Positions 924-19,907 are shown, counted from the stretch's first letter. The stretch: DNA of 64,000 nt from a virus (IMGVR_UViG_3300043427_004512), one strand, 5' to 3'. Numbers and translations: made by a program. Notes: generated by a model from the letters alone, not told the origin.

Positions 924-1580
924 ATGAAAAAAGAAATTTTAAGTGAGATTGACCAAATGAAATATCTTTTTGGATACAAGGCCGGAAAAGTAATCTCAGA
1001 ACAGACAAAACCTCTAAATCAAGACACAAAAAATATTAATTTAATTAAGGAAGTTGTTAGAAATTTATCTGAAGGAAAATTTCTTTTTATGAGTAAAGAA
1101 AATCCAGGTTTTCTAATAACTTCTGTTTCTAAAGAACCTGAGGGAAGAGATGGTCAGGACGTTGAAATTACTTTTAGAATGTTTGGACCATACAATCAAG
1201 TAGTTGGTGATTACCATAAAAGAACTAGATTATCTGCAAATCCGTCCAAAAAAATGGAAACTCCTGACTTAGGTAATTTAGATTGGAAACAATTGAATGA
1301 ATTACTTAATAAAGGTAATATTGGAGTTGCAAAAAAGACTGATGGTACTCTTTGGATTATTGATGACTTTCCTCCAGACAATAGTCCGTTACATACCCTT
1401 TACATAATGGCCATATCGTCTGGTGGTACTATAAATGATGAAAAACGTAAAAATGTTATTGATTATTTAAAAAGTATCGAACCAAAATCAGGTGAATGGA
1501 TTCTAAATGGTCTTTATAAGAATGACAAAGAAGAATGGACTCAATTAAATAATCTACTGAATCAACAACAAGTGAAATAA
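924..1580 (+). CDS. hypothetical protein with leader-A-like N-terminus (MKKEILSEIDQMKYLFGYKAGKVISEQ)
   Basis: ORF track 804..1580 trimmed to first ATG that does not overlap the minus-strand ORF; N-terminus ends KVISEQ, identical to the leader-A end of the 6181..7155 protein. Confidence 0.45.
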   Translation: MKKEILSEIDQMKYLFGYKAGKVISEQTKPLNQDTKNINLIKEVVRNLSEGKFLFMSKENPGFLITSVSKEPEGRDGQDVEITFRMFGPYNQVVGDYHKRTRLSANPSKKMETPDLGNLDWKQLNELLNKGNIGVAKKTDGTLWIIDDFPPDNSPLHTLYIMAISSGGTINDEKRKNVIDYLKSIEPKSGEWILNGLYKNDKEEWTQLNNLLNQQQVK

Positions 1581-1608
1581 AAAAGGGAACTATATGTTCC
1601 CTTTTTTT
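1581..1608. terminator. bidirectional rho-independent terminator (GGGAAC-tatat-GTTCCC plus T7; A-run on the other side)
   Basis: perfect hairpin between convergent genes 924..1580(+) and 1590..2033(-). Confidence 0.6.
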
Positions 1609-2033
1609 ATGAAAGAAATTGAAATACCTTCTATTTTATTTATATCATATTTAGAAAACCACCATCTGACATTATAAATTTTATTATCCCCATATAACAT
1701 AATTACCCAATGTTTAGGACTGTCCAATAATGAATTGTTATTTAAAGTCATAAAAGAAATAATTCTTTTATTTTCAAAAAAAGGTCGTAGTGAGTGAAAT
1801 TCGTTTAGGAAATCTTCAGTATTTGTAAACTGACGATAGTCAAAATCCATAGTGGAACTTTTATTCACAATAGTATCGATGCTTAGAAACAAAGTTTTAT
1901 TCTCATAAAATTGAATTCCGTTGAAATCAAAATTCAAGGTCTGATAAACTAATGATGGTATTTCTTCTTTAGAATGTTGAGCAATACTGATGTTATAAGT
2001 GAATAAAAATAAAAATAAAAAAAACTTTTTCAT
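1590..2033 (-). CDS. secreted protein with Bacteroidetes-type signal peptide (MKKFFLFLFLFTYNISIAQ)
   Basis: start moved to internal Met; hydrophobic N-terminus ends AQ. Confidence 0.45.
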   Translation of the reverse strand: MKKFFLFLFLFTYNISIAQHSKEEIPSLVYQTLNFDFNGIQFYENKTLFLSIDTIVNKSSTMDFDYRQFTNTEDFLNEFHSLRPFFENKRIISFMTLNNNSLLDSPKHWVIMLYGDNKIYNVRWWFSKYDINKIEGISISFIKKGNI

Positions 2034-2090
2034 ATTCTTTACAATTTGTCTCAAAATTAAAAATAAAAAATTGTAAAAAAAAATTATTAC

Positions 2091-2549
2091 TTATTTATTT
2101 TTGTCAAATTCTTTTTGATACTTCAAAAATTTAGAATATCCTTGTCTTTCTTTTTTAATTTGTTCAGGAGATTTCTTTTCTTTTGGGGGTAATTTTTCTC
2201 TGACAGGTTTTTTTCTTTCTTTGGGAGGTTCATCAGCGCCAATGAGGTTGGAAAAATTTACACCCATAAATTTTTCAGCAGTTTTCCTCACGCCAAAATT
2301 ATCATTTATCCAATCTCTAACACCATCTCTCAAATCTTTCATAGATTCAAAAAATAAATTTTCAGTTAATTTTTTTAAAATAGTTTTATCGAGTGTTGCC
2401 GTAGTTGGGGAGAGAATCATCAATAATTTGTCTCCAACATAAAAATTTCTACTATCTTTTTCAAATTTCATTATATGTCCGTCAAAAATCTCATCGAGCA
2501 TGTTATGTAATATGGAATCACTTTGACTTTCTGATATAATGATTTTCAT
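2091..2549 (-). CDS. leader-B protein (MKIIISESQSDSIL..)
   Basis: N-terminal leader of the MKxIISE(R)Q family. Confidence 0.55.
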   Translation of the reverse strand: MKIIISESQSDSILHNMLDEIFDGHIMKFEKDSRNFYVGDKLLMILSPTTATLDKTILKKLTENLFFESMKDLRDGVRDWINDNFGVRKTAEKFMGVNFSNLIGADEPPKERKKPVREKLPPKEKKSPEQIKKERQGYSKFLKYQKEFDKNK

Positions 2550-2561
2550 CTTTTTTTTTAA

Positions 2562-2903
2562 TTAATTTTCATCTTTAATACAATTATCTTCAAAATAATA
2601 AACTAAAATTTCACCGAAAAGATTTCTACATACCCTTCTTAAGTAATCCGTAATTTCACTATAGTCATCAATTTCTTCCATTTTAGGACCAACTTCGGTA
2701 TAAAAATAATCAATGGCATCATCTATTACAGCATCAGCATAATCATAACCATCATTGTGTTCATCACAATAGGGTGGATTATTTTTTCGTGATAGTGAGA
2801 CGAACTTTTCTAATGTGTTTTTATTAGCCCTCCTTATAATGGATAATGGAATCTTGGATTCTATTATTACATTATATTGTCTCTCATTTAAAAGGTATTT
2901 CAT
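2562..2903 (-). CDS. leader-B protein; cargo domain paralogous to 17895..18371
   Basis: ATG at 2903 gives MKYLLNERQYNVIIES; the track start at 2909 is TTG; cargo IRRANKNTLEKF..YDYADAVIDDAIDYF matches IRRRANRETLKAY..YEYAVAVIDYAIDKL. Confidence 0.6.
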   Translation of the reverse strand: MKYLLNERQYNVIIESKIPLSIIRRANKNTLEKFVSLSRKNNPPYCDEHNDGYDYADAVIDDAIDYFYTEVGPKMEEIDDYSEITDYLRRVCRNLFGEILVYYFEDNCIKDEN

Positions 2904-2942
2904 TATCAATAAATACTTTCACTCATTTGTTTATATGAAATT

Positions 2943-2968
2943 AAAAACCCCTCAATATGCGAGGGGTT
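2943..2968 (-). terminator. rho-independent terminator (CCCCTC-aatatgc-GAGGGG plus T-run on minus strand)
   Basis: hairpin directly downstream of the 2998..3321 gene. Confidence 0.55.
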
Positions 2969-2997
2969 CAGTATAAAGTTTCTAATTCGATGAGGGA

Positions 2998-3321
2998 TTA
3001 AGACATTACAGGGTTCTTTGCAGAACTTAAGAATTTAGATGAAACACAAGCCAATAAAGAAAAAGCCTTCATGCCAAGGTCCGCACCTTTATTCGTAATC
3101 TCTTTCATACAATCTGCCGATGATTGTGGCATTTTCCCTTGCATTAGTTCTGCTCCTGCAGCCATACATTTTCCATAATTTCTCATATCTACGCCACTAT
3201 CCTCAAAACATTTTTGTATTACATTCATAGGATTCTGAGATGGTGGTGCAGTTTGTTCTTCGAGAACCTTTCTTACTATTCTTTCTAAATCATTTTCTGT
3301 TAATCTTACTATCTTTTTCAT
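2998..3321 (-). CDS. leader-A protein (MKKIVRLTENDLERIVRKVLEEQ), Cys-containing cargo
   Basis: internal Met at 3321 restores the family-A N-terminus; upstream TATTTATAATA box. Confidence 0.55.
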   Translation of the reverse strand: MKKIVRLTENDLERIVRKVLEEQTAPPSQNPMNVIQKCFEDSGVDMRNYGKCMAAGAELMQGKMPQSSADCMKEITNKGADLGMKAFSLLACVSSKFLSSAKNPVMS

Positions 3322-3346
3322 AAATTTTTTATTATAAATATATTGT

Positions 3347-4213
3347 TTAGAATTCAAAAGCAGCATCTCCCAATCTATTCGAACCGTTTTTCTCTAAAAA
3401 CTTAGCCATATCGGTCAAATACTGATTTTTACCACGAGAAAGGTCAATCAAATCCCAATCTTTTATGAACCACCCGTCTTCTCCAAAACCAGGAATTACT
3501 GACCACGTACCTTTTTCTTTACCAGTAGTAGCGGCATTTACACCTGATGAACTATTCCAAATTATTTCTTCACCATTCGGCATTTTTACTACGATTACTT
3601 CTCTACCTAAAGGGTCATGATAGGGACCTTCAACTACTTTGACATTCTGAGGGGAAAATTTAGTGTTAGATTTCGGTAATCTACTTATAAAATTACTTTT
3701 TATTGAATTAAAAGAAGGACATGATTTTTGAGTACATCCTTTGATAGCAAATTTATTTTTAATTTGTCTCGAAAGAGCTGTAGGATTTTTCGGGATATAG
3801 CTACCATCTAATGGTTTTTTGTTTTTTAAAAAGTCATCCATTACACTTCTAAAGTCCGTTCCATCCGCAAGTTTACTCGGAAAATATTTCAATACTTCTT
3901 CTCGTCTCAATCTACCCTTAGCAACATTTAACAAAATTTCTTCAACTGTTTCCATTGGTATTGGTGCTGTTTCTAAACTTTTGGATATTAAATATGATTT
4001 CCCTTTTTGTGTTATTACGTTTGGTGATTTGAATTTTATATATAAAAAGTTGTCAAAAGACTTTACAGCATCATCCGAAAAATATTTGAATATATCATCG
4101 AATGTATTTGAGAAGAACGATTTTAAATTTTTTTGTTCTTCGAGTCTTTTAACGGAATATAATTTATCAACTATTATTTTTTTTTGTTGTTCTGATATAA
4201 TCAACTTTTTCAT
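3347..4213 (-). CDS. leader-B protein (MKKLIISEQQKKIIVDKL..), 288 aa
   Basis: family-B leader; variable cargo. Confidence 0.55.
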   Translation of the reverse strand: MKKLIISEQQKKIIVDKLYSVKRLEEQKNLKSFFSNTFDDIFKYFSDDAVKSFDNFLYIKFKSPNVITQKGKSYLISKSLETAPIPMETVEEILLNVAKGRLRREEVLKYFPSKLADGTDFRSVMDDFLKNKKPLDGSYIPKNPTALSRQIKNKFAIKGCTQKSCPSFNSIKSNFISRLPKSNTKFSPQNVKVVEGPYHDPLGREVIVVKMPNGEEIIWNSSSGVNAATTGKEKGTWSVIPGFGEDGWFIKDWDLIDLSRGKNQYLTDMAKFLEKNGSNRLGDAAFEF

Positions 4214-4217
4214 ATTA

Positions 4218-5066
4218 TTAATTTTCTTTTATACTAGCAAGTAAATCCTGTAATCCTTTAAGATTATCTGGTCTGCTTTTATATGTATCTGTTTGAAATT
4301 CTACAGGTACAGGCTTATCAGGTCTCCACCCTTTATCCCAAGCCAAATTCAAAAGTTCATTATCTTTTTTGTTTCCTGAACTACCGAAAGCGGATTTAAC
4401 AAAATCCCAATCAAATCCTTCAACAGAGGTTTTAACTTTAGGAGTACCTCCTCGAACAATGTCATAACCCTTACTATATCCTACACCTGCTGCAGTATAA
4501 ACCGCGGCATCTTTACCTAAATTCTTGGCTCCTTGGACTACTGCTTGTTTTTTTAATTGTTTTTTTGCAAGTTCTTTTCCTGCACGAATTGAAGCATCTT
4601 GTCCAAGTTTCTTCATTCCATCTTCTATGAGTTTTCTATACTGAGCAACTTTTTTAACAACCTCCTCTTCTACTTGTGACAACTTGGTCCCGAATGATAA
4701 TTTTTTCCCGATTTCTGCCAAAGCTTTGCTTCCCCAACCAGATAAACCGATTTTTACAGCCAACCCTCCCACTAAAGGAATTGCACTAAATAATCCAACT
4801 AAACCAGCAGTTTTTTTATCACCATCATCCCAGTACAATTTAGCGTCAGCTAAACCAATTCCAATAGATATTAGAGGACCAATGACTGGAACGAACGATG
4901 TACCAATTTGGTGAATAGTGAGTATTTCATGGGGCGATAAACCTGTTTGTTCAAAAGATTTTCTAATAACGTCTGGCTTTTGATAATCATACCCACCTGG
5001 TGGTGCTAACGTTATTGGTTGCTCAGAAACTATTTTATATTGTCTTTCAGAAATAATAATTTTCAT
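4218..5066 (-). CDS. leader-B protein (MKIIISERQYKIVSEQ) with glycine-zipper hydrophobic core
   Basis: leader plus GTSFVPVIGPLISIGIGLA...LVGLFSAIPLVGGLAVKIGLSGWG. Confidence 0.55.
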   Translation of the reverse strand: MKIIISERQYKIVSEQPITLAPPGGYDYQKPDVIRKSFEQTGLSPHEILTIHQIGTSFVPVIGPLISIGIGLADAKLYWDDGDKKTAGLVGLFSAIPLVGGLAVKIGLSGWGSKALAEIGKKLSFGTKLSQVEEEVVKKVAQYRKLIEDGMKKLGQDASIRAGKELAKKQLKKQAVVQGAKNLGKDAAVYTAAGVGYSKGYDIVRGGTPKVKTSVEGFDWDFVKSAFGSSGNKKDNELLNLAWDKGWRPDKPVPVEFQTDTYKSRPDNLKGLQDLLASIKEN

Positions 5067-5080
5067 AATCTATAAATACG

Positions 5081-6163
5081 TTATTTAATTAATTCAGCAA
5101 ACAAATACCAATCATATCCACCGGGTTTTGAGCTAGCAAATTCACCAGGTAGTTGTATTTTTCCACTCTTGATTAACTTATAACCTTTAGATTCTTGGGC
5201 TCTTTTAGATTCATCATTAATTGCCAAAACAACTTTTTTAATCTTTAGATTACCTAGACCTACCGTCATCCTGAAAAGGATTTCATTTCCATTTGGGATA
5301 TATTTTAGTTCAACAGAATCTATTGAGTATAATTCACCTTCAAAAATGTTTTCTTCAGACCACTTTTGTAGTTTTTTACTCAACTCATTGAAAGCATCTT
5401 TTTTCAAGTCTACGTGTACGAGAAAATTTTCACTTTCCACCGAACTATTAGGTTTTGTGTTATTAGTATTTGTTTTGTTCTCAGAATCAGTAGGAAAATA
5501 TTTTTCCATAATCTGTGAAATATCCGCACCATTCCACATTTCTGCTATAATCTTTGGTCTGTTTTTCCATGATATTTCAAATTTTTGTTTGTATTCTTTT
5601 ACTTTATCTTCAGTCGGTTGTTCACCTGGTTTCGTTGGCGGCGTTAAAGATTTGTATTGTTCAACAATTTTAGAAATATATTTATCATAATAGTCATTAA
5701 TAGTTCCATCTTTAATTTTCTGTTTTACTAAATTGTAGGCATTGTTTCTGTAATCAACATCCGAAATTATTTTACCCCTATCCAAAGAAGGGTTTATAGC
5801 TTGAGCTAATCCTGCAATCCATCTATATTCTTTACCCACAGAGGAACCCGCTTGAAACATGAAAGAGTATATCTGTATTCTAAACAAAGGGTCTATCTTA
5901 AACCATTCCTTTTCAGTCAATCCATTTGGAAAATCTTTTATATATTTTTTTATTACTCCTTCAAGTTCGTCTCCCTTATGAGGCGTAGGTGCAGGTTTCC
6001 ATGTACCTCCGACTTTTTCTGCCGTACCCATATTGTTCTCAATATCCTCAATTATTTCATACCCTTTGGAAGGTATTAAACCATCTTTATACTGTTCATT
6101 CAACAACCCGTACATTTTTAGAATTTCACTTCTATCTGATTCTGATATAATAACTTTTTTCAT
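5081..6163 (-). CDS. leader-B protein (MKKVIISESDRSEILKMYGLLNEQ)
   Basis: internal Met at 6163 gives the family-B leader; the track has an N-extension. Confidence 0.5.
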   Translation of the reverse strand: MKKVIISESDRSEILKMYGLLNEQYKDGLIPSKGYEIIEDIENNMGTAEKVGGTWKPAPTPHKGDELEGVIKKYIKDFPNGLTEKEWFKIDPLFRIQIYSFMFQAGSSVGKEYRWIAGLAQAINPSLDRGKIISDVDYRNNAYNLVKQKIKDGTINDYYDKYISKIVEQYKSLTPPTKPGEQPTEDKVKEYKQKFEISWKNRPKIIAEMWNGADISQIMEKYFPTDSENKTNTNNTKPNSSVESENFLVHVDLKKDAFNELSKKLQKWSEENIFEGELYSIDSVELKYIPNGNEILFRMTVGLGNLKIKKVVLAINDESKRAQESKGYKLIKSGKIQLPGEFASSKPGGYDWYLFAELIK

Positions 6164-6180: not shown

Positions 6181-7155
6181 TTAATAGTAAAGGTAATTCC
6201 AAGTCTCTCTGCCGACAATACCATCTTTACCTTTTAATCCGCTTTTAATTTGCATTTGTTTAACTGCCTTTCGTGTTTTAGGACCATAGATTCCATCACA
6301 TGATTGTTCGTTTTCACCACAATTTCCGGGATTTGAATTATCGTCTTTTAACTCGAACTGAACTTTTTTAACCAAGTCTCCACTACTTCCATTTCCTAAT
6401 ATATGTGTACCATCTAAAATCTGTTGTTCTGTAGTTGCATATCCTTTAGCTCTTGTTGTTTGCTCGGTTTTATAATCTCCACTCAAAACCGGTTTTGTTC
6501 CGTCCCAAGTCCATTGGAGTATCCTAACATACCCTCCGTCAGCCATATCTTTTTTAGCAATCTTAACCTTCCCATCATTTAGAAAAGCTATAATGTGTTC
6601 ATTATTTTTGAGTAGTAATTTAGAATCTCCTTCTTTTTTGGTTAAACTTTCTTTCGAAAAATCAGGTGGAAATCCATTGGACTCAAGGTATTGTTTTACT
6701 TTTGTCCAATTATCAACATTTGGGCTTGCTGCGGGGGCTGCGACGGTTTTTGGAGACAACTTGAAATTTTTGTAAAGATGGTCTTCCAAAGTATACGGTA
6801 CTTTTAATTCTTTAAGTTTTTCCAAAACCTTTTTCATGTCATTTTTGTTGTTGAATCCAAAACCAATTATACTTCCGAGCTCAAATTCACCTCTAATCAT
6901 TTCATCAAACGAACCATATCCTGTTTTTTTATCCTTAAATGTATCATTTAATTTATAAAATTCTTCGGGAGTTTTAATTAATGAAAGTCCGCTGATAATA
7001 TCTTTTGGACGAGTTCCTCCCCATGATTCACCTTTAGCACCTTTTATCATGTATTGATAAGCTTTCGATATATTATCTGTTTGGGCCTGTTCAGAAATTA
7101 CTTTACTAACTAAACGAACCAACTCTGATTCAGTTAATCTTACAACTTTTTTCAT
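6181..7155 (-). CDS. leader-A protein (MKKVVRLTESELVRLVSKVISEQ) with C-terminal peptidoglycan-binding (PG_binding_1-like) domain
   Basis: leader; C-terminus KTRKAVKQMQIKSGLKGKDGIVGRETWNYL matches the PG-binding 1 motif (DGI.G..T). Confidence 0.6.
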   Translation of the reverse strand: MKKVVRLTESELVRLVSKVISEQAQTDNISKAYQYMIKGAKGESWGGTRPKDIISGLSLIKTPEEFYKLNDTFKDKKTGYGSFDEMIRGEFELGSIIGFGFNNKNDMKKVLEKLKELKVPYTLEDHLYKNFKLSPKTVAAPAASPNVDNWTKVKQYLESNGFPPDFSKESLTKKEGDSKLLLKNNEHIIAFLNDGKVKIAKKDMADGGYVRILQWTWDGTKPVLSGDYKTEQTTRAKGYATTEQQILDGTHILGNGSSGDLVKKVQFELKDDNSNPGNCGENEQSCDGIYGPKTRKAVKQMQIKSGLKGKDGIVGRETWNYLYY

Positions 7156-7221
7156 ATTAAATTATTCTCTACAATAAATACCGCATCCGACCTGATTTGG
7201 ATTAATTAAACGATAGGAAAT

Positions 7222-7269: not shown

Positions 7270-8286
7270 TTAATAAAGTCTTAATCCTTCAATTCTAATT
7301 CCATTACTTCCACAATCAACTTGGTATTGACTCTTTCCGGGTCTCGTTGAAACAACACTCTTGAGGTGGTTACAAATTTCCAAATATGTATCAGAATCTA
7401 ATGGCTTTTTGTTTAAGTATGTAGCCAAATCCATTCTTCTTGCGTTATAGATTTCTTGATTTAGTTGTTCCAAGTCTGAGAAAGTTTCAAGTCTTTTGAT
7501 TCCAAAAATAATACTATCTTCATCGGGCACTGAGTAAGTATCATATTTATCTTCACCAAGTCCTATATAATCTAAAATTTTATCGATAAAATCTTTACCT
7601 CTTTTAACACTAAGTAGTTTGTTAGGTGATTGAACATCTCTACTGCTTAAAGCTACACCTCTTTGGTCCAAACCTCTTGTTTCAATCGGTCTCATAATTA
7701 TTGTTCCAAATCTCTCTTTATCATTTGGTTTTACCTTATTCGAATCATAAAAATTGAAATTGAATTTTGTTGGTTCATAATTACTTGATTGCATCGAAAT
7801 GAGTTGTTCTATTTTGTCTGTTCTAATACCCAATTCTTTGAAAACTTCCGTTATTATATCAATGAATAATTTTTTTCTCATCCTCGAAACATTTACATTT
7901 TGGTCAGGTGTACCTGTTTGAGAAGTACCAACGTTAATTTCAAAAATCTGAGGTAATTTATACTTACTATCGATAAATCTTTCAATAGTATCTTTCATAT
8001 TCTCAAGATAAGATTTGATTTTATCTTTAACCATTTTTCTTGTTTCAGGTCTCATATTAGCCTTTCCTTCATCAAATGCAAAACCTCCCTGAAGTGCTTG
8101 TCCAGTATGAACTGGTTCAGGTTCCATTTCGTTTAAAATTACAGATTCAGAAATTGGCTTAACATCTCCAAGTTTCGATTCTATTAAAGTTTTAAATTTT
8201 GACGTATCAATTTTAATTCTGTCTGTGTGTTGTTCACGGATTGCATTTTTTTCTTGCTCCGTCAAATTATTCAATATGTGTTTCAT
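7270..8286 (-). CDS. hypothetical protein, 338 aa
   Basis: long ORF flanked by terminators. Confidence 0.5.
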   Translation of the reverse strand: MKHILNNLTEQEKNAIREQHTDRIKIDTSKFKTLIESKLGDVKPISESVILNEMEPEPVHTGQALQGGFAFDEGKANMRPETRKMVKDKIKSYLENMKDTIERFIDSKYKLPQIFEINVGTSQTGTPDQNVNVSRMRKKLFIDIITEVFKELGIRTDKIEQLISMQSSNYEPTKFNFNFYDSNKVKPNDKERFGTIIMRPIETRGLDQRGVALSSRDVQSPNKLLSVKRGKDFIDKILDYIGLGEDKYDTYSVPDEDSIIFGIKRLETFSDLEQLNQEIYNARRMDLATYLNKKPLDSDTYLEICNHLKSVVSTRPGKSQYQVDCGSNGIRIEGLRLY

Positions 8287-8355: not shown

Positions 8356-8715
8356 TTAATCCATTCTTTTCATTCTGAGTTTAACAGGACCATCTTGTTG
8401 ATACCTGTCCCAATATCCTTTACCAGGACTTCTGTCTCCCTTGAAACCTTTTGCACCAAACGACCACTTGTTTTCAGGGAAATCTGTATCTGTTTGAGAA
8501 ATATATTCTTCAAAATCCTCAGGACCAAATTCAATTTCTTCATCATAATCAAATTCACCTTTTACTGGTGAGTCCATTTCATCATACCATCTATCCTTGT
8601 GTCCCAAATAGCCCTTTTTTCTCATGGGTAATTCTTTATCCAATTCTGACTCTTTAACTATTTTTCTAACCAATCTGACCAGCTCAGATTCAGTTAATCT
8701 TACAACTTTTTTCAT
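8356..8715 (-). CDS. leader-A protein (MKKVVRLTESELVRLVRKIVKES)
   Basis: first 17 aa identical to 6181..7155, with synonymous nucleotide differences. Confidence 0.6.
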   Translation of the reverse strand: MKKVVRLTESELVRLVRKIVKESELDKELPMRKKGYLGHKDRWYDEMDSPVKGEFDYDEEIEFGPEDFEEYISQTDTDFPENKWSFGAKGFKGDRSPGKGYWDRYQQDGPVKLRMKRMD

Positions 8716-12086: not shown

Positions 12087-12287
12087 GTAAAAAACATTTT
12101 TTGGTTATATCATAAATACATTATACCTTTGCTTTGTCTGAATATAAGTAGGACGGGCTGGAGTGAACCTCTTGGAGCTGAATCAAAGGCAGGTTGCTTA
12201 ATAATAATATTAAGGTCAAGTTTTCCGTTCGAAAAACTTGACCTTAATATGTGGATAAGTTTATTTGGCAGTTTGGGAAATATTTCG

Positions 12288-12295
12288 TATCTTTG
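12288..12295 (+). promoter_or_regulatory. Bacteroidetes-type -7 box TATCTTTG
   Basis: matches the TAnnTTTG consensus; duplicated at 12348. Confidence 0.35.
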
Positions 12296-12347
12296 TAGGT
12301 TATTCCCCCCTATATAAAATTCTTTTGGCCATGTCAGAAAATAGTCG

Positions 12348-12355
12348 TACCTTTG
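12348..12355 (+). promoter_or_regulatory. Bacteroidetes-type -7 box TACCTTTG next to the start of 12360..12767
   Basis: tcgtaCctttgtag repeats tcgtaTctttgtag at 12283. Confidence 0.35.
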
Positions 12356-12359
12356 TAGT

Positions 12360-12767
12360 ATGAAAATGACAAAGAACATACTATTAAAGACTGACACTCG
12401 GGACCTTAGTCAAACCAAGGTTAAGGAGATTGCCAAGCTTACCATCATGTATGGTGTTGGGAAGTTTGGGGTCCATAACTATAAGAAGGTCCCCACCGTT
12501 TCAGTTGTCAATAACCCTGACGATAAGTTCTATGGTATGTTTGACTGTGGGACCAATAAGATAGTTGTCAATAGAGCTTATGCTGTCAATGTTAAATTGT
12601 TGGTCCAAACTATTCTCCATGAATATACCCACTACCTTCAGAACATGAGCAAGTATATACAACTCTATAAGAAGGTTGGGTATGACAACCACCCCTACGA
12701 AGTGGAAGCAAGAAACAGTGAGAAGTTATATTCAGAAGCGTTCAAACAAATAAAACAATTGATATGA
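12360..12767 (+). CDS. HExxH metallopeptidase-like protein (LHEYTHYL)
   Basis: HExxH motif; 135 aa. Confidence 0.45.
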   Translation: MKMTKNILLKTDTRDLSQTKVKEIAKLTIMYGVGKFGVHNYKKVPTVSVVNNPDDKFYGMFDCGTNKIVVNRAYAVNVKLLVQTILHEYTHYLQNMSKYIQLYKKVGYDNHPYEVEARNSEKLYSEAFKQIKQLI

Positions 12768-12961
12768 GTATCTTAATGTATTTCCTGCTCGGACTATTTG
12801 TATTCTTCGTTGGGGTGTCGATGTTTATCGTCGTATTCAAATTCCTCTTTAATATATTTTGGTCATTCATTTCCTTCATGTGGTCCTACGCCAGACTCGT
12901 TGGGACCATCTTGGTTATGATTGTTGTCTATTGTTTCTTTAAGGTTTACATTCTTAATTAA
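12764..12961 (+). CDS. possible small hydrophobic membrane protein
   Basis: ATGA overlap with the upstream gene; 2 TM helices; but it overlaps the 3' end of the minus-strand ORF 12863..13207. Confidence 0.25.
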   Translation: MSILMYFLLGLFVFFVGVSMFIVVFKFLFNIFWSFISFMWSYARLVGTILVMIVVYCFFKVYILN

Positions 12962-13207
12962 CTCTTGACACCAAGCAACAATTTCCTTGGGAGTAATACT
13001 CTCCCCACCATAAACGTATAATCCCTCGACTTTTGCTTCCACACAAGCCCATCCATTCTGAAGGATGGGTTTTCTATTCCACCCCCTCTTAGCCTTCTCG
13101 AAGTACAAGGTCCCTAACTCTTGGTCCTCTACCCTTAGTACTATTCTCACTCTGTTCTCTTCTAACCACTCTATCTCAGGTACAATATATTCTTTCCATG
13201 ATTTCAT
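12863..13207 (-). CDS. hypothetical protein
   Basis: 114 aa ORF in the GC-elevated island. Confidence 0.4.
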   Translation of the reverse strand: MKSWKEYIVPEIEWLEENRVRIVLRVEDQELGTLYFEKAKRGWNRKPILQNGWACVEAKVEGLYVYGGESITPKEIVAWCQELIKNVNLKETIDNNHNQDGPNESGVGPHEGNE

Positions 13208-13861
13208 ACCATAAAATATACGTTGGGAACATATAAAAATAAAGATGACATTGTGTCTGTTAATATCAGGAAGGGGAATGTGGATAAAAAAATACCCCTA
13301 AAAATTTGGATTTGTCAGAATGTCAGGGGACTCGCCACGATGGGGATAATCCCTTTTCCACATTTTCCCCCACTTTCTCCCACCACTGATTCCCACTTTT
13401 TACCACCGAATTGTGTGTGTAGATAGTGTAGGGACCACTTTTTCCCCTGTGGCACTATCAGGAGGACCATATTTTTACTATATATATTTCCCAGATAAAA
13501 AAGGAATATTAAGTGTAATGTGGGGGGAGTGAGTGTAACGAACCTTTAACCCTATATAATACCCCTTCAACGAACCTGTTAGTTTGGTTTTATGACCTTC
13601 CACGAGATGGACAATCTATGTCCCCTTCGTAGCGGACATCTCATATGGTGGGTAAAAGTGGGAAGAGTATAATTTTGTCATTAGTACCACAAAGTGGTAC
13701 CTTTAACATAAAATTACTCTTAAGGGAATATAAGTGTCATACCCTAATGGGTGTAATTATTTACCGAAGGTATTGTCTTATACCCTTATGGGTGTAGACA
13801 CAATATATCACCATCTCACTGATGTCCTGTCATTATATGGGGGACAAGATATAAGGTGGGG

Positions 13862-13946
13862 ATTATAGAGTAAGGTGGTGAACGTAAGGACTTCCGAACG
13901 AAGTGAGGAATGTATTGTCCTGAAGTGAACTAACTTACTCTATAAT
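13862..13946. other. stem-loop element copy A (13-bp inverted repeat attatagagtaag / cttactctataat enclosing ccgaacgaagtgagg and gtgaact)
   Basis: perfect inverted repeat read from the sequence; a second copy with compensatory stem changes at 15511..15610. Confidence 0.5.
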
Positions 13947-13951
13947 ATACG

Positions 13952-14479
13952 TTAAAGAGAGATTGTAATTCCTCCAGTAACCATAACTATTTCACCTAAA
14001 CCCATGTTTAGAGTTACGCCGATTAGTTTACTAACTTGGGAATCAAATCCGTATCTGAAGAAAGGAAGTATCTTGTTTTGAAAAACTGGGTCGGTATTGA
14101 CCGCTTTAGCAGTAAAAGAATGTGCTAAACCGAGTCCGATATTACCTACATATCTATCGTCTCTTTTTGTTTTATAATATACGGAATATATACGCGTGAC
14201 CATACCAGCGTCGTATGTATTTGTAACTCCGTTGATATAGTCATTAATATCGTTTGTTGAGTTATTTATACGCCAAGAATACCCAAACTCGAATCCTATT
14301 CTATCGTTAAATTCAACACCGTGAGAAAGAACAGGTGCAAATTTGTTGATTATATCTGTTTTCATCGTGGTAAAAGTCCCGAAAGATGTGGTGAACTTAA
14401 TAGGTGAGAAGTCAGTGTTTTGACCATAAGAGAAAACCGATGCAATTAAGGAGATTGCAACCATAAAAAATCTTTTCAT
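13952..14479 (-). CDS. outer-membrane beta-barrel-like protein with signal peptide (MKRFFMVAISLIASVFSYGQ)
   Basis: signal peptide plus alternating aromatic/Gly strands, ends ..GGITISL. Confidence 0.45.
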   Translation of the reverse strand: MKRFFMVAISLIASVFSYGQNTDFSPIKFTTSFGTFTTMKTDIINKFAPVLSHGVEFNDRIGFEFGYSWRINNSTNDINDYINGVTNTYDAGMVTRIYSVYYKTKRDDRYVGNIGLGLAHSFTAKAVNTDPVFQNKILPFFRYGFDSQVSKLIGVTLNMGLGEIVMVTGGITISL

Positions 14480-14624: not shown

Positions 14625-15188
14625 ATGGAAGAAATTTTAAAAAAATTAATTGAAAGACTTGTATTACCGAAATATCCTATTATAAAGGATTTTGCTATTA
14701 CAGAAGTAAATAGAAAAGTTGGAATACATAATTACGAGGCAAAGAATTTTTATAGTGTTCATTATTTTGTTGTGGATGATTTGAATTATGAAAACAATAG
14801 GAAAATAAAAGAAGATATAACATCTGATACTGTAAAATTATTTAAGGCTTTAGGAATTGAAAAATATGATGTACATGAAAGTGTTATGTTTGCTAGTTAC
14901 CAAGTTAATAAAATGGTAAACTCATTAGAAAAATTAATTGGAAATGTTATGCCACCGAAATACCCTTGGATAAAGAATTTTGAGGTTTTTGGAAATGAAG
15001 ATTTCGGAGAGAATTTTTATACAATTCATTACTATGTTGATGAAAATGAATATAAGAAAAAAAACAGCAGTGAAATCAACCGCATTATATCCGAAACTAG
15101 GAATTTATACAGTAGTCTCGGACCGAGTGAAAATGATTTTTTAAAAGATATATCATTCGAGAATTATGGAGAATGGTTTAAGAATTAA
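14625..15188 (+). CDS. family-D protein 1 (MEEILKKLIERLVLPKYPIIKDF..), internal duplication
   Basis: ATG at 14625 (the track start at 14601 is TTG); the LPKYP motif occurs twice. Confidence 0.55.
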   Translation: MEEILKKLIERLVLPKYPIIKDFAITEVNRKVGIHNYEAKNFYSVHYFVVDDLNYENNRKIKEDITSDTVKLFKALGIEKYDVHESVMFASYQVNKMVNSLEKLIGNVMPPKYPWIKNFEVFGNEDFGENFYTIHYYVDENEYKKKNSSEINRIISETRNLYSSLGPSENDFLKDISFENYGEWFKN

Positions 15189-15200
15189 AAAAATATTGTG

Positions 15201-15506
15201 ATGATGAAAGATTCGTTAGATAAGTTAATTAAAAAATTAGTTCTCCCTAAGTATCCCATTATAAAGGATTACGAAATAACGGTAGATGTTTACAAACCCA
15301 CATTACCTTTAGCTGGAGGTAAGAAGAAAATTGCGTCAGAACATTATACAGTTAGTTATGATTTATCTTCTGATGAGGATGGTAATTTTACTGTCACTGA
15401 TGACCTCGGTAAAATAGATAAACTAACGGTGACTTTGTTTAAAATGCTCGGACCTGAACATTATCAGAAGTTGAACAACGTTGATTTTTATAGTTATAAG
15501 GATTAG
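15201..15506 (+). CDS. family-D protein 2 (MMKDSLDKLIKKLVLPKYPIIKDY..)
   Basis: paralog of the previous gene. Confidence 0.55.
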   Translation: MMKDSLDKLIKKLVLPKYPIIKDYEITVDVYKPTLPLAGGKKKIASEHYTVSYDLSSDEDGNFTVTDDLGKIDKLTVTLFKMLGPEHYQKLNNVDFYSYKD

Positions 15507-15510
15507 ATAA

Positions 15511-15610
15511 GATTATAGAGTAATGTGTAGTTAGAGAACGAATGGAGATGACCCCGAACGATAGTGAGGTGTATTGGTCATCGGAGTGAGTGAACTATAC
15601 TACACATTAC
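15511..15610. other. stem-loop element copy B (stem taatgtgtagt / actacacatta; core ccgaacgatagtgagg, gtgaact)
   Basis: shares a 13-nt 5' end and internal motifs with copy A, but the stem sequence is different and still complementary. Confidence 0.5.
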
Positions 15611-15630
15611 AAAATATTATATTTATTAAT

Positions 15631-15939
15631 ATGAAGGAAACACTAACGAAATTAATAAACAAAATAATAATACGTAAATACAGGGATATTGCACCCGAAC
15701 TTAGTTTTGAGGTAATGCCAGCTAGTTTGGAATATGATTCTATGGGTGTTGGAGAGAATACCTATCTTGTAAGATTTAAGTTTACTGATGAGAATGATAA
15801 ATTCCCCTCGATTGTTGAGAAACCTTTGGTTAAGGACACGATATTTGTAATGAAGTCTGTTGGATTAAAAGGTGTACGACACAAACAGAGTAATATGACT
15901 TACTTTAGAGGTTATGTGGATATAATTGGAAATAATTAA
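15631..15939 (+). CDS. family-D protein 3 (MKETLTKLINKIIIRKY..)
   Basis: ATG at 15631 preceded by aaatatttattaat, identical to the sequence upstream of 14625. Confidence 0.5.
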   Translation: MKETLTKLINKIIIRKYRDIAPELSFEVMPASLEYDSMGVGENTYLVRFKFTDENDKFPSIVEKPLVKDTIFVMKSVGLKGVRHKQSNMTYFRGYVDIIGNN

Positions 15940-15961
15940 ATTTCACGTTATTTATAGTTAT

Positions 15962-16237
15962 ATGAACGTTGTCTCATTACAGAAAATAATTAATAAGTTA
16001 GTACTCCCTAAGTATGATTGGATAGTATCCTATGAGATAGATTCTTTCTATTATCGTCCGTTTGAGAATTTTAGAGTAGTATATTATGTAGATTCCCCCG
16101 ACATAACAGATAAAGAGGATGAGGTTAAGAAAGTAGAGAAAATGACTGAGAATTTGTTTGAAGTTCTTGGACCTGTGGGTACTCAGGTATTACGAGGAGT
16201 TGTATTTGAATACGATGAGGATAGAGTGAAGAACTAA
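15962..16237 (+). CDS. family-D protein 4 (MNVVSLQKIINKLVLPKYDW..)
   Basis: paralog; internal Met start. Confidence 0.5.
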   Translation: MNVVSLQKIINKLVLPKYDWIVSYEIDSFYYRPFENFRVVYYVDSPDITDKEDEVKKVEKMTENLFEVLGPVGTQVLRGVVFEYDEDRVKN

Positions 16238-16239: not shown

Positions 16240-16614
16240 CTAAAATTTTGTCAAAGCATAACTCGTGACTGAAAAAGAATAAGGAGGTAATCCCAAAATC
16301 TTGGTAATATTTCTTACTTTTCTCTCGTTTGATTCGAGGTGGTCAGAGAAATCTGTATCAGTTTCATCGTATTTTAATTTGATTTGGTACATCCCCTGAA
16401 GTTCATTCCATATTACCTCGACATCGAAAACATGTGGTAAAGACATTTTGGACAACAATCTTTTAATAATGTTGTATGTTGATTCTGAATACTCGACATT
16501 CTCATATTGAGCCAATTCGTTAATATTCATCATCTGTTTAATCCTGTCTATGTTTTCCTGTAAGTTCATGTTTATAAATATATTTGTAAGATAATTATAT
16601 GGTATGAAATACAT
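16240..16614 (-). CDS. leader-C protein (MNLQENIDRIKQMMNINE..)
   Basis: internal Met restores the MNLQENI leader. Confidence 0.5.
   Translation of the reverse strand: MYFIPYNYLTNIFINMNLQENIDRIKQMMNINELAQYENVEYSESTYNIIKRLLSKMSLPHVFDVEVIWNELQGMYQIKLKYDETDTDFSDHLESNERKVRNITKILGLPPYSFSVTSYALTKF
16579..16586 (+). promoter_or_regulatory. -7 box TATATTTG 17 nt upstream of the ATG at 16604
   Basis: matches the TAnnTTTG consensus. Confidence 0.3.
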
Positions 16615-16984
16615 TATATCTGAAAGACAATATCAATTAATAAGTGAAACTTTGGACACGAGTTCTTTAGCACTTAGAAGAAGATTATCTTTAATCGAAA
16701 AATTAATCGACGAGGAATTAGCAGAGATTCATAAAGAAGGTGGTAGTGAATTCACGGACCTAATCGAATTCATGAACATTGTAATTAATATCGTTGTGGA
16801 TAAAGTTTTTACGGAAACAGGTGGAGAAGAAGAATTAGACCAAGAAGAATTAAAAGAATTTATTGAAGAGCATTATGGTGATTACATACTTTCTATGTTC
16901 CCACATGATTTGGAAGGCGATGAAGAGGATGATGAAGACTATGAAGAAGATGAAGACTATGAAGAAGAGGATGATGAATTCTAA
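16604..16984 (+). CDS. leader-B protein (MKYIISERQYQLISE) with poly-acidic C-terminal tail
   Basis: leader; DE-rich tail containing an 18-nt tandem repeat gatgaagactatgaagaa x2. Confidence 0.55.
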   Translation: MKYIISERQYQLISETLDTSSLALRRRLSLIEKLIDEELAEIHKEGGSEFTDLIEFMNIVINIVVDKVFTETGGEEELDQEELKEFIEEHYGDYILSMFPHDLEGDEEDDEDYEEDEDYEEEDDEF

Positions 16985-17034: not shown

Positions 17035-17421
17035 ATGCGTTATATTATTACACAATCTCAGTTTCATACTTTGATATACAAATATCTTGATGGTTTATTT
17101 GCTAATGAAGATTTCAGAAAAGAGATTAATCCATATGTAAAAGACGGAAACACTTATAGTATAGACATGTTCACAGATAAGGGAAAAGAATTAATGAGTT
17201 ATTTTTGGTATGGTCCTGGCGAATATGATGATGGAACAGAACATAATGGAATCGGTAATTTACATATACATCACGAATTAGTGGATTCATTAAGAAGTAA
17301 ATTAACCGTAAGAGAATCTAAGATATTGGACATTATTGCGGATTGGGTTAGTGAAAAATTTAATTCTGACGTAGATGATACGACTATATATCCGAAGAAT
17401 CCAAAGCCCACAAATTATTAA
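17035..17421 (+). CDS. leader-B-like protein (MRYIITQSQFHTLIYKYL)
   Basis: degenerate family-B N-terminus. Confidence 0.45.
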   Translation: MRYIITQSQFHTLIYKYLDGLFANEDFRKEINPYVKDGNTYSIDMFTDKGKELMSYFWYGPGEYDDGTEHNGIGNLHIHHELVDSLRSKLTVRESKILDIIADWVSEKFNSDVDDTTIYPKNPKPTNY

Positions 17422-17898
17422 TTATCCAGGTGTCATGTTGTCCAAGTAATATTCCTCTATCTCATCAGAGAAATAATCTTCAACATATTTTGTAATGTAT
17501 GGTTCGATTTTCTCTCTCATTTTTAATATTTCTTCGTAATTTAGGTCTCCTGAAGAATTAGAAATTTCTCTTATAACATTAAAAATAATTCTTGACATAT
17601 ACTCATCATAACTGTTAAAAGACCATGGTACAAGATGTTCGTAAGTATCTCTAACATATCTCGGCAAAAAATCAAATAATCTTCTTTTGATGTATAGTGG
17701 GATTTCTGATTCTGTGACTAAGTCGTTATTTGTGCCACAGTGTGGACAGATGGGTAAAGACTTCTTTCCCTTGTGTATTGTCTGTGTAAACTTCTTTTTA
17801 CAATTGAAACATTTAATCCATTTTTCTCCTGACTCTTTTTCTTCGAGAGAAACTCCCATCACTTCCTTAATCCTTGATATGTTTTCTTGTAAGTTCAT
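17422..17898 (-). CDS. leader-C protein (MNLQENISRIKEVMGVSLEE) with zinc ribbon (CFNCKKKF..CPHCG)
   Basis: internal Met gives the leader and an ATGA overlap with the upstream gene; the track N-extension is spurious. Confidence 0.55.
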   Translation of the reverse strand: MNLQENISRIKEVMGVSLEEKESGEKWIKCFNCKKKFTQTIHKGKKSLPICPHCGTNNDLVTESEIPLYIKRRLFDFLPRYVRDTYEHLVPWSFNSYDEYMSRIIFNVIREISNSSGDLNYEEILKMREKIEPYITKYVEDYFSDEIEEYYLDNMTPG

Positions 17899-18371
17899 TT
17901 CTTTTTCTTTTTTACACAGTTTGGATATTTTTTCCCGAACATTGTCTTCATCCCTTTTTGTGTATATCCTTTCCAACACCTTTCAGTTATTTCTGACTCG
18001 TTCTGTTCCTGTCTTCCTGAATCTGACATATATTCAGAACAAGTTGTTTTATATACTTCAATCAAATACTGACCAAACATAATCTCAGTCATACTTCTTA
18101 AATAATCCAAAACATCACTGATGTAATCCTGCTCAAATATGTCATCATCCACATCATCCAATAATTTATCAATCGCATAATCAATTACAGCAACAGCATA
18201 TTCATATTCATCACCAAAATCGTCACACAGAGTTGGATATTCCAATTCTGCTCTGTTTATATAAGCTTTCAGTGTCTCACGGTTAGCTCTTCTTCTAATT
18301 GAACTAGGAACAGTGGATTCATTTATACCCATCACGTCCTTAATCCTTGATATGTTTTCTTGTAAATTCAT
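17895..18371 (-). CDS. leader-C protein; cargo paralogous to 2562..2903
   Basis: MNLQENISRIKDVMGINES followed by the IRRRANRETL..YEYAVAVIDYAID domain. Confidence 0.6.
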   Translation of the reverse strand: MNLQENISRIKDVMGINESTVPSSIRRRANRETLKAYINRAELEYPTLCDDFGDEYEYAVAVIDYAIDKLLDDVDDDIFEQDYISDVLDYLRSMTEIMFGQYLIEVYKTTCSEYMSDSGRQEQNESEITERCWKGYTQKGMKTMFGKKYPNCVKKKKK

Positions 18372-18949
18372 TTCATTAACTCTAATGCATGTTCGAGACT
18401 TTTAACCCCAAATTTACGTGCTTGAACCAAACGTCTACCCTTGGATGAGTCTTTGTCCCAACATAGAATACACGGACGTTTTTTATTTAACTCATCTTCC
18501 CAATGGTTGTATTGTGTTGTATAGTCCCATATTTTTTTAGTATTTCCCCATCCTTTGGAATATAACCAACCTCCAACATTTCCTCCTGTTCTATCCATTC
18601 CGTTTCTACAATGAATTAAAGTATAACCCTTATCCAAAATTGAATTTACTTTGCTTTGGTCGTTTTCTGCGTCCAAGAGGAAGAAATTACATCCCAAAGA
18701 CTCACAAATCTTTTTTTCCTCGGCTACAGACAAACCTTTACTGTCTCCTCCATCTGCGTTAAACCTAATTATGTTTTTGATTTTGTTAACTCTAATTGTA
18801 TTTTTCAGAACCTCTGAAGGTAATTCACCTGAGCGGAAATTGTTTTTTCCTAATGGGATTTGATGTAAGTTAGTCTGAGTAATACTCGATTGTTCTTTGA
18901 TAAGACCCATGACCTCCTTGATTCTATTTAAGTTTTCAGTTAAGTTCAT
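18368..18949 (-). CDS. leader-C dual-specificity/tyrosine protein phosphatase
   Basis: MNLTENLNRIKEVMG leader; active-site loop HCRNGMDRTG (CX5R). Confidence 0.7.
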   Translation of the reverse strand: MNLTENLNRIKEVMGLIKEQSSITQTNLHQIPLGKNNFRSGELPSEVLKNTIRVNKIKNIIRFNADGGDSKGLSVAEEKKICESLGCNFFLLDAENDQSKVNSILDKGYTLIHCRNGMDRTGGNVGGWLYSKGWGNTKKIWDYTTQYNHWEDELNKKRPCILCWDKDSSKGRRLVQARKFGVKSLEHALELMK

Positions 18950-18954
18950 CTTGA

Positions 18955-19239
18955 TTATAAATTGTCAATAGATTTTATAAGTTTATGACATTTTTGGGAC
19001 ACTTTACCTTTTTCATGGTCTGTTATTGATATTTTGACTTTGTTGTATTTGATTTCAATATCAGGATGATGGTCTTGTTTTTCCGCTATTTTAGCAACTT
19101 TATTAACAAAATCTATGGATTGGTCAAAATTTTTAAATTCAAATGTTTTTTCCAACTTTTTTTCAGAGTCGCCCCATCCTTTAGATTCACTCAAAGTCAT
19201 CACTTCCTTAATCCTTTGTATGTTTTCTTTTAGGTTCAT
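18955..19239 (-). CDS. leader-C pterin-4a-carbinolamine dehydratase-like protein
   Basis: MNLKENIQRIKEVM leader; EKQDHHPDIEIKYNKVKISITDH matches the PCD/DCoH signature. Confidence 0.65.
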   Translation of the reverse strand: MNLKENIQRIKEVMTLSESKGWGDSEKKLEKTFEFKNFDQSIDFVNKVAKIAEKQDHHPDIEIKYNKVKISITDHEKGKVSQKCHKLIKSIDNL

Positions 19240-19907
19240 TACTTTTTAAGTTCTGATGATATTTTAACCGCAATGTCTGCGTCTTTTTTTAAATCTTGAA
19301 CAAGCGTATTAAAATTTTGTAAAGGCTCTTTGAAATATTTCAACTTTGGTGTTTTATTTACTTCTTGAATTAATTGAGAAAGTTTTTTTGATACTTCAGT
19401 TAAACTTTCAGCTAATTCTCCTCCTAAAAATTTGGCAAGTACTAAAAGAAATAAGTATTGAAATTTATTCTTGAATAGAAAAAATTTGGTTCTATCAACT
19501 ATCCCCAACTTTTGACCAATAATCATAATTTCCGCTGGTGTATACTTTAAAACTTGTTTTATTCCTGTTCTAACCATAATTGGTAATGAGTTTCCCGCAA
19601 TTGGAATAAAAGTTGCGCCAAGAGTTATGAAGGCGAGTGTCGCATTTTCTATTCTTTCTTCATCAGTTTTACTGAAAAAATACCTAACAATGTAAGAAAT
19701 AGTGTGGATAATATCTATACCAGCAGATACGAGATTACCAATTCCAGGTATTCCATCAATCGCAGCTGAAACAAGGTCAATTGTGTCATCAAGACCAATT
19801 GAAGGTAAATCTTCATGTTTAGTCCTTGGTTGAAATCTACTGTCAGGAATTTGTTCGTTAATTCCCATGACTTCCTTTATCCTTTGTATATTTTCTTGTA
19901 AGTTCAC
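19239..19907 (-). CDS. leader-C protein with glycine-zipper membrane segment; GTG start
   Basis: leader MNLQENIQRIKEVMGINEQ encoded from the GTG at 19905-19907; IDGIPGIGNLVSAGIDIIHT. Confidence 0.5.
   Translation of the reverse strand: MNLQENIQRIKEVMGINEQIPDSRFQPRTKHEDLPSIGLDDTIDLVSAAIDGIPGIGNLVSAGIDIIHTISYIVRYFFSKTDEERIENATLAFITLGATFIPIAGNSLPIMVRTGIKQVLKYTPAEIMIIGQKLGIVDRTKFFLFKNKFQYLFLLVLAKFLGGELAESLTEVSKKLSQLIQEVNKTPKLKYFKEPLQNFNTLVQDLKKDADIAVKISSELKK

Follow-up and report, generated by a model that had tools for sequence, protein, structure and literature searches.

Internal proteins (IPs) of bacteriophage T4 carry N-terminal propeptides of 10–19 residues, the capsid targeting sequences (CTS), which attach them to the scaffolding core before being cut away (PMC9026906, PMC5694885). 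The protease gp21 cuts after Glu in the motif L/I-X-E, and several cleavage sites are often present within one propeptide (PMC9026906, PMC5694885). Alt bears propeptides at both termini (PMC9026906). The IPs are a highly diverse set in which the CTS alone is conserved (PMC3012670). Here we analyzed a 64,000-nt stretch of the virus IMGVR_UViG_3300043427_004512 (hereafter, the window), in which many genes begin with one of several conserved leader peptides and continue into unrelated cargo. A first-pass annotation had described four families of such leaders, A to D, on otherwise unrelated open reading frames (ORFs). Families A, B, and C are real and comprise 21 solid ORFs of the window and one weak family C member (22054), while family D turned out to be an ordinary family of full-length paralogues. 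The same annotation stated that no named system matches these leaders, which overlooks the T4 CTS; the tagged phages are T4-like. With moderate confidence, the leaders of families A, B, and C, together with those of several smaller families, are predicted to be capsid-targeting propeptides of a large uncultivated T4-like clade, subject to cleavage and packaging; the first-pass annotation had already implied a location in the virion. On this best-supported reading, the tags would be greatly expanded relative to the T4 CTS in number, length, and family diversity.

Leader-bearing ORFs were found by six-frame motif scans combined with ORF listing, and the leader starts were curated. In an unbiased comparison of the N-termini of 95 window genes, at least 9 of 16 residues were common to 20 ORF pairs (16 ORFs), versus no pairs when internal segments of these proteins were compared and no pairs in ten shuffles. 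The consensus sequences are MKKVVRLTESELVRLV..(I/L)xE for family A, MK(I/Y)IISE(R/S)QY… for family B, and MNLQENIxRIKEVMG… for family C. The leaders are 15–24 residues long, start at the initiator Met, and end sharply, giving way to unrelated cargo. The genes assigned to the three families using motif scans and profile hidden Markov models (HMMs) are as follows.

2998–3321, minus strand: family A gene; leader MKKIVRLTENDLERIVRKVLEE followed by Q, with a small Cys-containing cargo (leader-A HMM, E = 4e-12)
6181–7155, minus strand: family A gene; the cargo ends in a PG_binding_1 domain (leader-A HMM, Pfam)
8356–8715, minus strand: family A gene; its cargo is acidic and matches no family (leader-A HMM); the single-sequence AlphaFold2 (AF2) model is poor and uninformative (predicted local distance difference test, pLDDT, 41), though it places a helix at residues 9–22
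8766–9044, minus strand: family A gene, leader end …RLINE/E… (leader-A HMM)
10244–10462, minus strand: family A gene, 72 amino acids (leader-A HMM)
37662–38012, minus strand: family A gene away from the main cluster; PG_binding_1 cargo (HMM, Pfam); the leader is offset by 11 residues and starts at residue 12 (HMM 39 bits, aligned to residues 12–32)
512–856, minus strand: family B gene overlooked earlier; leader MKYIIKESKMDSLIE followed by K (HMM, E = 2e-6)
2091–2549, minus strand: family B gene (motif scan, HMM)
2562–2903, minus strand: family B gene; cargo homologous to that of the family C gene at 17895 (cargo BLAST, E = 1.6e-11)
3347–4213, minus strand: B-like gene of the MKKiiITE subfamily (HMM, unsupervised clustering)
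4218–5066, minus strand: family B gene; cargo with Gly-rich membrane-like segments (motif scan, HMM)
5081–6163, minus strand: hybrid leader, MKKVIISESDRSEILKMYGLLNE followed by Q, with a weak match to family B (HMM, clustering)
9442–9747, minus strand: family B gene (motif scan, HMM)
16604–16984, plus strand: family B gene with a very acidic C-terminus (motif scan, HMM)
17035–17421, plus strand: family B gene (motif scan, HMM)
16240–16569, minus strand: family C gene (motif scan, HMM)
17422–17898, minus strand: family C gene; Zn-ribbon-like cargo (weak Pfam match to Zn_ribbon_8)
17895–18371, minus strand: family C gene; cargo homologous to that of the family B gene at 2562 (cargo BLAST); its C-terminal module is joined via …SEITE/RCW…
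18368–18949, minus strand: family C gene; HCxxGxxRT phosphatase-type motif in the cargo (read from the sequence; no Pfam hit)
18955–19239, minus strand: family C gene; pterin-4a-carbinolamine dehydratase cargo (Pfam, 3e-21)
19239–19907, minus strand: family C gene with a GTG start; membrane-like cargo (motif scan)
22054–22581, minus strand: weak C/C2-type leader, MKLDETIKRILEIME…, overlooked earlier; ParB_N-like cargo (HMM 8.5 bits, Pfam)

A census of 344 related loci (2.96 Mb) yielded 593 leader ORFs, of which 246 belong to family A, 144 to family B, and 203 to family C. Except for 80 loci centered on the major capsid protein (MCP), these loci were chosen by leader patterns, and the frequencies are not population estimates; the counts from the scans are lower bounds. 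Position 1 of the leader models was Met in 92%–99% of the 593 hits and lay a median of 5–7 codons from the upstream stop, excluding the mis-called starts that the first-pass annotation had named as a possible source of the pattern. The alternative that the leaders are an artefact of wrong starts or of chance similarity in low-complexity coding regions could appeal to the AT-rich genome (about 31% G+C), where short K/I/E-rich motifs are common. It is already refuted by the contrast between 20 similar N-terminal pairs and empty internal and shuffled controls, by the conserved initiator Met, and by the 7,222 clusters retrieved in the exhaustive search described below, and its residual probability is negligible.

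Across the 593 leader ORFs, the sequence is nearly invariant up to residue ~22 in family A, ~15 in family B, and ~19 in family C and then abruptly loses conservation; in family C, residues L3, E5, and R9 are conserved at 100%. The modular architecture proposed for these genes, a conserved leader on unrelated cargo, was upheld by both BLAST of the cargos and these boundary profiles. In unsupervised clustering, the largest families were B, C, and A, and at least four others of smaller size emerged. Leader A represents a basic amphipathic helix with a charge of +3.5 and a hydrophobic moment of 0.65. Sec/Tat signal peptides, in which a hydrophobic stretch of about 10 or more residues (plus an RR motif for Tat) precedes a signal-peptidase site, were considered and rejected: the consensus leaders are charged and amphipathic and have no hydrophobic run. 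Double-glycine (bacteriocin-type) leaders, LSxxELxxIxGG with cleavage after GG, were rejected as well; family A (RLTESDLxRIV) resembles the LSxxELxxI part of such leaders, but the profiles have no GG at the boundary.

The first 17 codons of the 6181 and 8356 leaders differ by five synonymous and one non-synonymous change, in agreement with the earlier claim that their differences are mostly synonymous. At the invariant residues, synonymous codons are found at background usage, including the TTR/CTN codons of Leu, TCN/AGY of Ser, and AGR/CGN of Arg, and pairs of window A leaders have only 58%–80% nucleotide identity. As was originally suggested, the target of selection is therefore the peptide and not a shared 5' DNA element. 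Family C has an extra codon bias (AAC at N2, CTA at L3, and ATA at I7, 95%), which may reflect a recent spread of the module or a constraint at the RNA level. This bias would suit a quite improbable alternative, in which the 5' ends are recombination cassettes, consisting of promoter and leader, for shuffling in hyperplastic regions, similar to PeSL elements, and the peptide itself has little function. The leader genes are indeed clustered among small genes, each with the motif TATTTAT, the same cargo can be found under different leaders, assemblies break at the repeats, and PeSL provides a precedent in T4-type phages (PMC4122927, PMC2839356). However, a DNA cassette of this kind does not account for the use of all synonymous codon families at background frequencies, for the A-leader pairs that keep the peptide at such low nucleotide identity, or for peptide conservation that persists where the MCPs are only 63%–82% identical to the query; shuffling may be a consequence of a portable tag and not its purpose.

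Three short-read assemblies of the same phage (L344, L345, and L346) stop exactly at the start of the family C gene 19239–19907; the repeated tags appear to break metagenome assemblies.

The search of metagenome proteins with leader profiles, recommended in the first-pass annotation, was carried out for leader A by exhaustive hmmsearch against 1.84 billion representatives clustered at 50% identity. A leader-A profile built solely from the six window A leaders matched 7,222 clusters at E ≤ 1e-3, and the matches nearly always began at residue 1. Degenerate DNA patterns matched at least 120 IMG/VR contigs for each of families A, B, and C; many of the tag-bearing contigs are 200–330 kb long, and the three families co-occur on the same contigs. 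The unusual scale attributed to this system was corroborated. A 455-amino-acid protein of the window retrieved no relatives from IMG/VR. Megablast of 20 kb against GenBank phages gave no match, and a strict DNA pattern for leader C (the only leader used) had no hits in 185,579 bacterial and archaeal species genomes of GTDB. A search for the peptide strings found no paper containing them in the library covered, and no description of these families was found in the literature on CTS-like leaders outside the T-even phages. A search with concatenated A, B, and C profiles was discarded: it returned only short unnamed metagenomic proteins, with spurious high coverage values.

Large genes recurring beside the leader genes are hallmarks of T4, namely the Gp23 MCP (3e-73) and the Gp20 portal protein (Portal_T4, 2e-78), as assigned by Pfam. 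Other T4 hallmarks found in tag-bearing loci were a T4-type terminase, gp32, a RecA/UvsX-like protein, tail sheath, and Baseplate_J. In one locus (L063), genes for portal, core proteins, a gp21 homologue, an acidic scaffold, and the MCP follow the T4 head-gene order, and two leader genes lie within 2 kb of them. The gp21 prohead protease homologue of this locus (5131–5814) comprises 227 amino acids and matches PDB 5JBL with E = 2e-12. Both tags and MCP were present on at least five single contigs, including the 287-kb contig 3300031787_000001 and one of 201 kb. The MCP of this lineage is encoded in at least 598 IMG/VR stretches, and the contigs sharing leaders have MCPs only 63%–82% identical to the query MCP. 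The closest cultured MCPs are those of Flavobacterium phage immuto (40% identity), Microcystis phage Mel-JY01, and Rhodothermus phage RM378. Together, these relationships point to a deep-branching T4-like group and would fit a host among the Bacteroidota.

The portal and protease genes flank that of a conserved protein of ~245 amino acids (L063, 6560–7291, minus strand, and 48 other loci). The KLTES element of its N-terminus, M..FG.IK.K.L.KLTESY, resembles the core of leader A, and this protein is possibly a core component connected with the tags.

The ends of the leaders resemble prohead protease sites. The background frequency of the motif [LIV]-x-E is 1.7% per position. Exactly where the conserved part stops, the motif is present in 90% of leaders for family A, 64% for family B, and 92% for family C, versus 8%–12% expected. 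A second [LIV]-x-E near the N-terminus (E9 in A, E7 in B, and E5 in C) is conserved at 96%–100%. The MCP of the lineage contains a conserved …[LM][IL][NY]E/[AST] site, for example …YLINE/AAVSD…, just upstream of the region aligning with mature T4 gp23*; the exact register against T4 gp23's own site is tentative. Tag ends such as …RVINE/Q, …MGIINE/G, and …GLLNE/Q closely resemble this predicted maturation site, and the junctions of fused cargo modules (…SELTE/RCW and …EELTE/YAR) are also of the Φ-x-E type, where Φ is a hydrophobic residue.

If the leaders are capsid-targeting propeptides, they would operate as short N-terminal peptides, A and C as amphipathic helices and B as a short strand-like IITES motif. 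During prohead assembly the tag would dock its cargo onto a gp22-type scaffolding core, and a gp21-type prohead protease would then cut after the Glu of [LIV]-x-E within the tag and at its end, the predicted sites being E9 or E22 in family A, E7 or E15 in family B, and E5 or E17–19 in family C. The freed cargo would stay in the head and could be delivered with the DNA or act during entry. Such a tag would be portable, and therefore cargos and tags could be shuffled freely, giving a hypervariable set of co-packaged proteins. A possible but doubtful extension is that the tag families (A, B, C, C2, and others) are not redundant and form an address code, which would give dozens of proteins per phage different destinations or release times. 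The destinations could be the interior of the capsid versus the apparatus of tail or entry, or a site that the phage organises within the cell it infects; protein sorting by helices of ~20 residues would then be a general system in this lineage, with the T4 CTS as a minimal relative.

A promoter-like motif is shared by the head and tagged genes. TATTTAT(A/T) was found 3–25 nt upstream of many tagged genes (window examples at 19908–19920, 5067–5079, and 7156–7180), while it occurs in 2.3% of random 45-nt windows. In the IMG/VR loci, its upstream occurrence by gene class was as follows.

Prohead protease: 12/12
Terminase: 71%
Portal: 60%
Scaffold: 50%
Three other likely structural genes: 100%
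gp32 and UvsX: 0% (n = 2 and 3)
Methyltransferase: 0/12
ClpB-like: 1/8
Leader genes of families A, B, and C: 71%, 49%, and 31%

This distribution fits a putative late or structural promoter class common to head and tagged genes. The distance from TATTTAT to ATG is 15–20 nt for family A and 3–5 nt for most B and C genes; the latter spacing suggests leaderless mRNAs. Bacteroidota are not known to use Shine-Dalgarno sequences, and it could be imagined that the leaders aid expression, either initiation on leaderless or very short-leader mRNAs in such a host or early folding. The 3–5 nt spacing and the codon bias in the first seven codons of family C would agree with this explanation, which is nevertheless very improbable: selection acts at the amino-acid level, conservation extends over 15–24 residues and ends sharply, internal and C-terminal copies exist, and most highly expressed genes, for example that of the MCP, have no tags.

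The 593 leader ORFs formed 295 cargo clusters, of which 162 were singletons. The proteins are small, with medians of 128–172 amino acids. After removal of the leader, the window cargos were mostly unrelated by BLAST, with two exceptions: the same cargo follows the B leader at 2562 and the C leader at 17895 (E = 1.6e-11), and the A-leader genes 6181 and 37662 have a C-terminal PG_binding_1 domain in common (Pfam). Cargo families identified by Pfam in the window were PG_binding_1, pterin-4a-carbinolamine dehydratase, ParB_N, and a weak Zn-ribbon match; relatives added LysM, thioredoxin, DUF5872, DUF6576, an extracytoplasmic function (ECF)-type sigma factor, and Amidase_2, and P-loop motifs were read from the sequences of several of their cargos. 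Overall, types represented among the cargos are nuclease-like, phosphatase-like, and kinase-like proteins, a sigma factor, peptidoglycan-binding and amidase proteins, and membrane-like ones, but most cargos match no known family.

The pterin dehydratase illustrates the exchange of tags. It carries a C leader in the window, a B leader in several relatives, and a C2 leader (MNLQETIRRILRE…) in others, while its junction …[ILV]NE/SKGW… is constant whichever leader precedes it. Homologous cargos in related phages do keep a leader, the first-pass annotation having named its absence as a possible refutation: all 12 inspected pterin dehydratase homologues bear C-type or C2-type leaders, and many seemingly leaderless homologues actually bear other tag variants. 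In the AF2 model of the tagged enzyme (18955), the core has a pLDDT of 87–96, and the leader forms a detached helix (pLDDT ~50) followed by a linker.

Among other tagged proteins, an ECF-type sigma factor (Sigma70_r2 plus r4_2) has a family B leader in L080 (4137.., plus strand) and in homologues. Near the MCP gene of seven loci (L396, L403, L405, L406, L407, L411, and L417), a recurrent small protein with an A-like leader is encoded. It contains a poly-Lys tract of up to ~13 Lys and a Cys-containing YPSAYANGxAVQVCKG domain, and it is extremely basic, as are the T4 internal proteins. Proteins of the P0121–P0167 series, as well as P0150 and P0237, have two or three copies of the leader-A motif, an N-terminal one plus internal or extreme C-terminal ones, and look like possible chains of tag-plus-cargo modules.

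Several observations weigh against capsid targeting. The [LIV]-x-E motif is short and could simply belong to an amphipathic helix. The cargos are mostly acidic (median pI of 5.1–5.9; 24%–39% above pI 8), while T4 IPs are basic, and it is not obvious why a virion would carry cargos such as the pterin dehydratase, a flavodoxin-like protein, or P-loop kinases. In some proteins (P0150, P0237) the leader-A motif is internal or even located at the extreme C-terminus. TATTTAT also precedes 32% of other long ORFs. No similarity of the leaders to the T4 CTS, MKTYQEFIAE, is visible by eye beyond the Φ-x-E ending, and tblastn with an A-leader protein and the consensus leaders found nothing meaningful in 50,697 GenBank phage records, including many Tequatrovirus genomes; such a comparison has low power for short peptides. 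In the nearest cultured relative, Flavobacterium phage immuto, a scan of 100 kb of the 160-kb genome, all but its middle 60 kb, detected none of the tags A, B, and C.

Finally, no head genes of the phage itself are present in the 64-kb window and ~20 kb of flanks, which contain accessory, replication, and recombination genes only. Public assemblies extend the source genome by ~10 kb per side: the right flank encodes a gp46-like protein in full length and a gp47-like nuclease (Metallophos) and gives a faint primase-like hit, and the left flank contains lysis and accessory genes. The window has ~60 genes in common with the lineage loci at 30%–80% identity; a locus joining several window homologues with T4 hallmark genes was sought, and single shared genes were found. 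Since no head genes were seen in the window or its flanks, we infer a T4-like head for this phage, rather than observe it, from the shared genes, tags, and promoter motif.

Some of these points would also be explained if the leaders were permanent docking or oligomerisation helices that are neither cleaved nor targeted to the capsid. They would tether many effectors to one shared hub during infection; this hub might be, for instance, a chaperone of the phage (DnaJ or ClpB-like), a compartment or assembly that the phage builds, or a target in the host. Internal and C-terminal A motifs fit such helices equally well, as does the basic amphipathic character of leader A; the 15–24 near-invariant residues exceed the need of a 10-residue T4 CTS; the cargos are acidic, with enzymes of a cytoplasmic type and a sigma factor among them; and the window encodes a protein read from the sequence as DnaJ-like, and relatives encode a ClpB-like AAA+ protein. 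We nevertheless consider permanent docking unlikely, because the leaders stop sharply at an [LIV]-x-E like that of the predicted MCP maturation site, the tags were found only with T4-type head genes, T4 Alt also bears a C-terminal propeptide (PMC9026906), and nothing with repeated receptor modules emerged as a candidate hub.

The leader genes are accompanied in the window by the following features.

7270–8286, minus strand: member of a further leader family, MKhLLNdlS.eEKNrIlEQH (unsupervised clustering)
53870–55408, minus strand: long protein in which an A-like motif, …LVLSENELIDLIEKIVNEE…, lies internally, at residues ~282–303 (motif scan, HMM)
924–1580, plus strand: previously listed in family A and rejected; only MKK… and …VISEQ are common (HMM scores ≤ -0.5)
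14625–16237, plus strand: family D, one paralogous small-domain family of four genes, 14625–15188, 15201–15506, 15631–15939, and 15962–16237 (homologous cargo regions)
10518–10964, minus strand: HNH-endonuclease-like ORF within the leader-gene cluster (CxxC…HNHH, read from the sequence)
24725–26556, minus strand: four adjacent genes with Pfam matches to PfkB kinase, cytidylyltransferase-like, cupin, and HAD-hydrolase
35295–35701, minus strand: full-length GOLLD RNA (Rfam RF02032, 317 bits, E = 5e-90) in an ORF-free stretch
36257–36329, minus strand: tRNA-Met (CAT), adjoining the GOLLD RNA
50606–51532, minus strand: DnaJ-like protein (read from the sequence)
59653–60450, minus strand: full sigma-70-type factor (regions 2 and 4, Pfam)

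Family D cannot be described as a leader plus unrelated cargo because the cargo regions are homologous and 14625 consists of two tandem copies of the domain; in unsupervised clustering it was never found on dissimilar cargo. The family D domain (L.KLI.KLVLPKY…Y.V.Y…LF..LGP) also occurs behind a C leader in L053 and inside longer proteins in L247. Judging by the Pfam names, the four genes at 24725–26556 look like a putative sugar-nucleotide (heptose-type) pathway. The ClpB-like AAA+ protein of relatives was found in L124. The region 12000–14000 has a local G+C content of 38%, versus ~31% elsewhere, and contains few convincing ORFs at ~13200–13950.

If the leaders are capsid-targeting propeptides, the proteins that this clade would co-package, and probably inject, would far exceed those of any studied phage in number and variety. 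The tags would then allow candidate effectors of host takeover and anti-defence to be catalogued directly, most of them without a known family, and would be short, well-defined candidates for loading foreign proteins into T4-type capsids. The CTS principle would be general and expandable, as proposed by T4 researchers (PMC9026906).

Other systems share particular features with the leaders described here. Encapsulin cargo-loading peptides are short, portable, located at either terminus, and direct diverse enzymes into an HK97-fold shell; encapsulins are cellular nanocompartments without protease removal, and their peptides are unrelated in sequence to these leaders. PeSL cassettes of T4-type hyperplastic regions, made up of an early promoter plus a stem-loop, are likewise a conserved 5' element before many small variable genes and are tied to shuffling (PMC4122927, PMC2839356), but PeSL is non-coding DNA, whereas the conserved part here is translated and selected as a peptide. 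In the giant phages phiKZ, 201phi2-1, and SPN3US, ~50 head proteins are processed after Glu by a gp21-related protease, and paralogues with conserved N-termini and multiple sites within the propeptide have been described (PMC5694885). Their propeptides, however, are mostly longer than 100 residues with the motif A/S/G-x-E, and they belong to paralogue families rather than to unrelated cargos under one tag.

The closest counterpart is the CTS of T4 (IPI, IPII, IPIII, and Alt). In both cases, a short N-terminal propeptide or leader is found on unrelated hypervariable small proteins (PMC9026906, PMC3012670, PMC5694885), ends in the prohead-protease motif L/I-x-E, often with more than one site, is portable between cargos, and belongs to phages with the head genes gp20, gp21, gp22, and gp23, seen here in the tag-bearing relatives. 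Unlike the T4 CTS, the leaders reported here, known from sequence alone, are longer (15–24 residues), form at least three large and several smaller families within one genome, also occur in internal and C-terminal copies, and precede mostly acidic cargos in place of the basic ones of T4. They mark 20 or more genes in 64 kb, compared with ~4 in T4, and thousands of cargo clusters.

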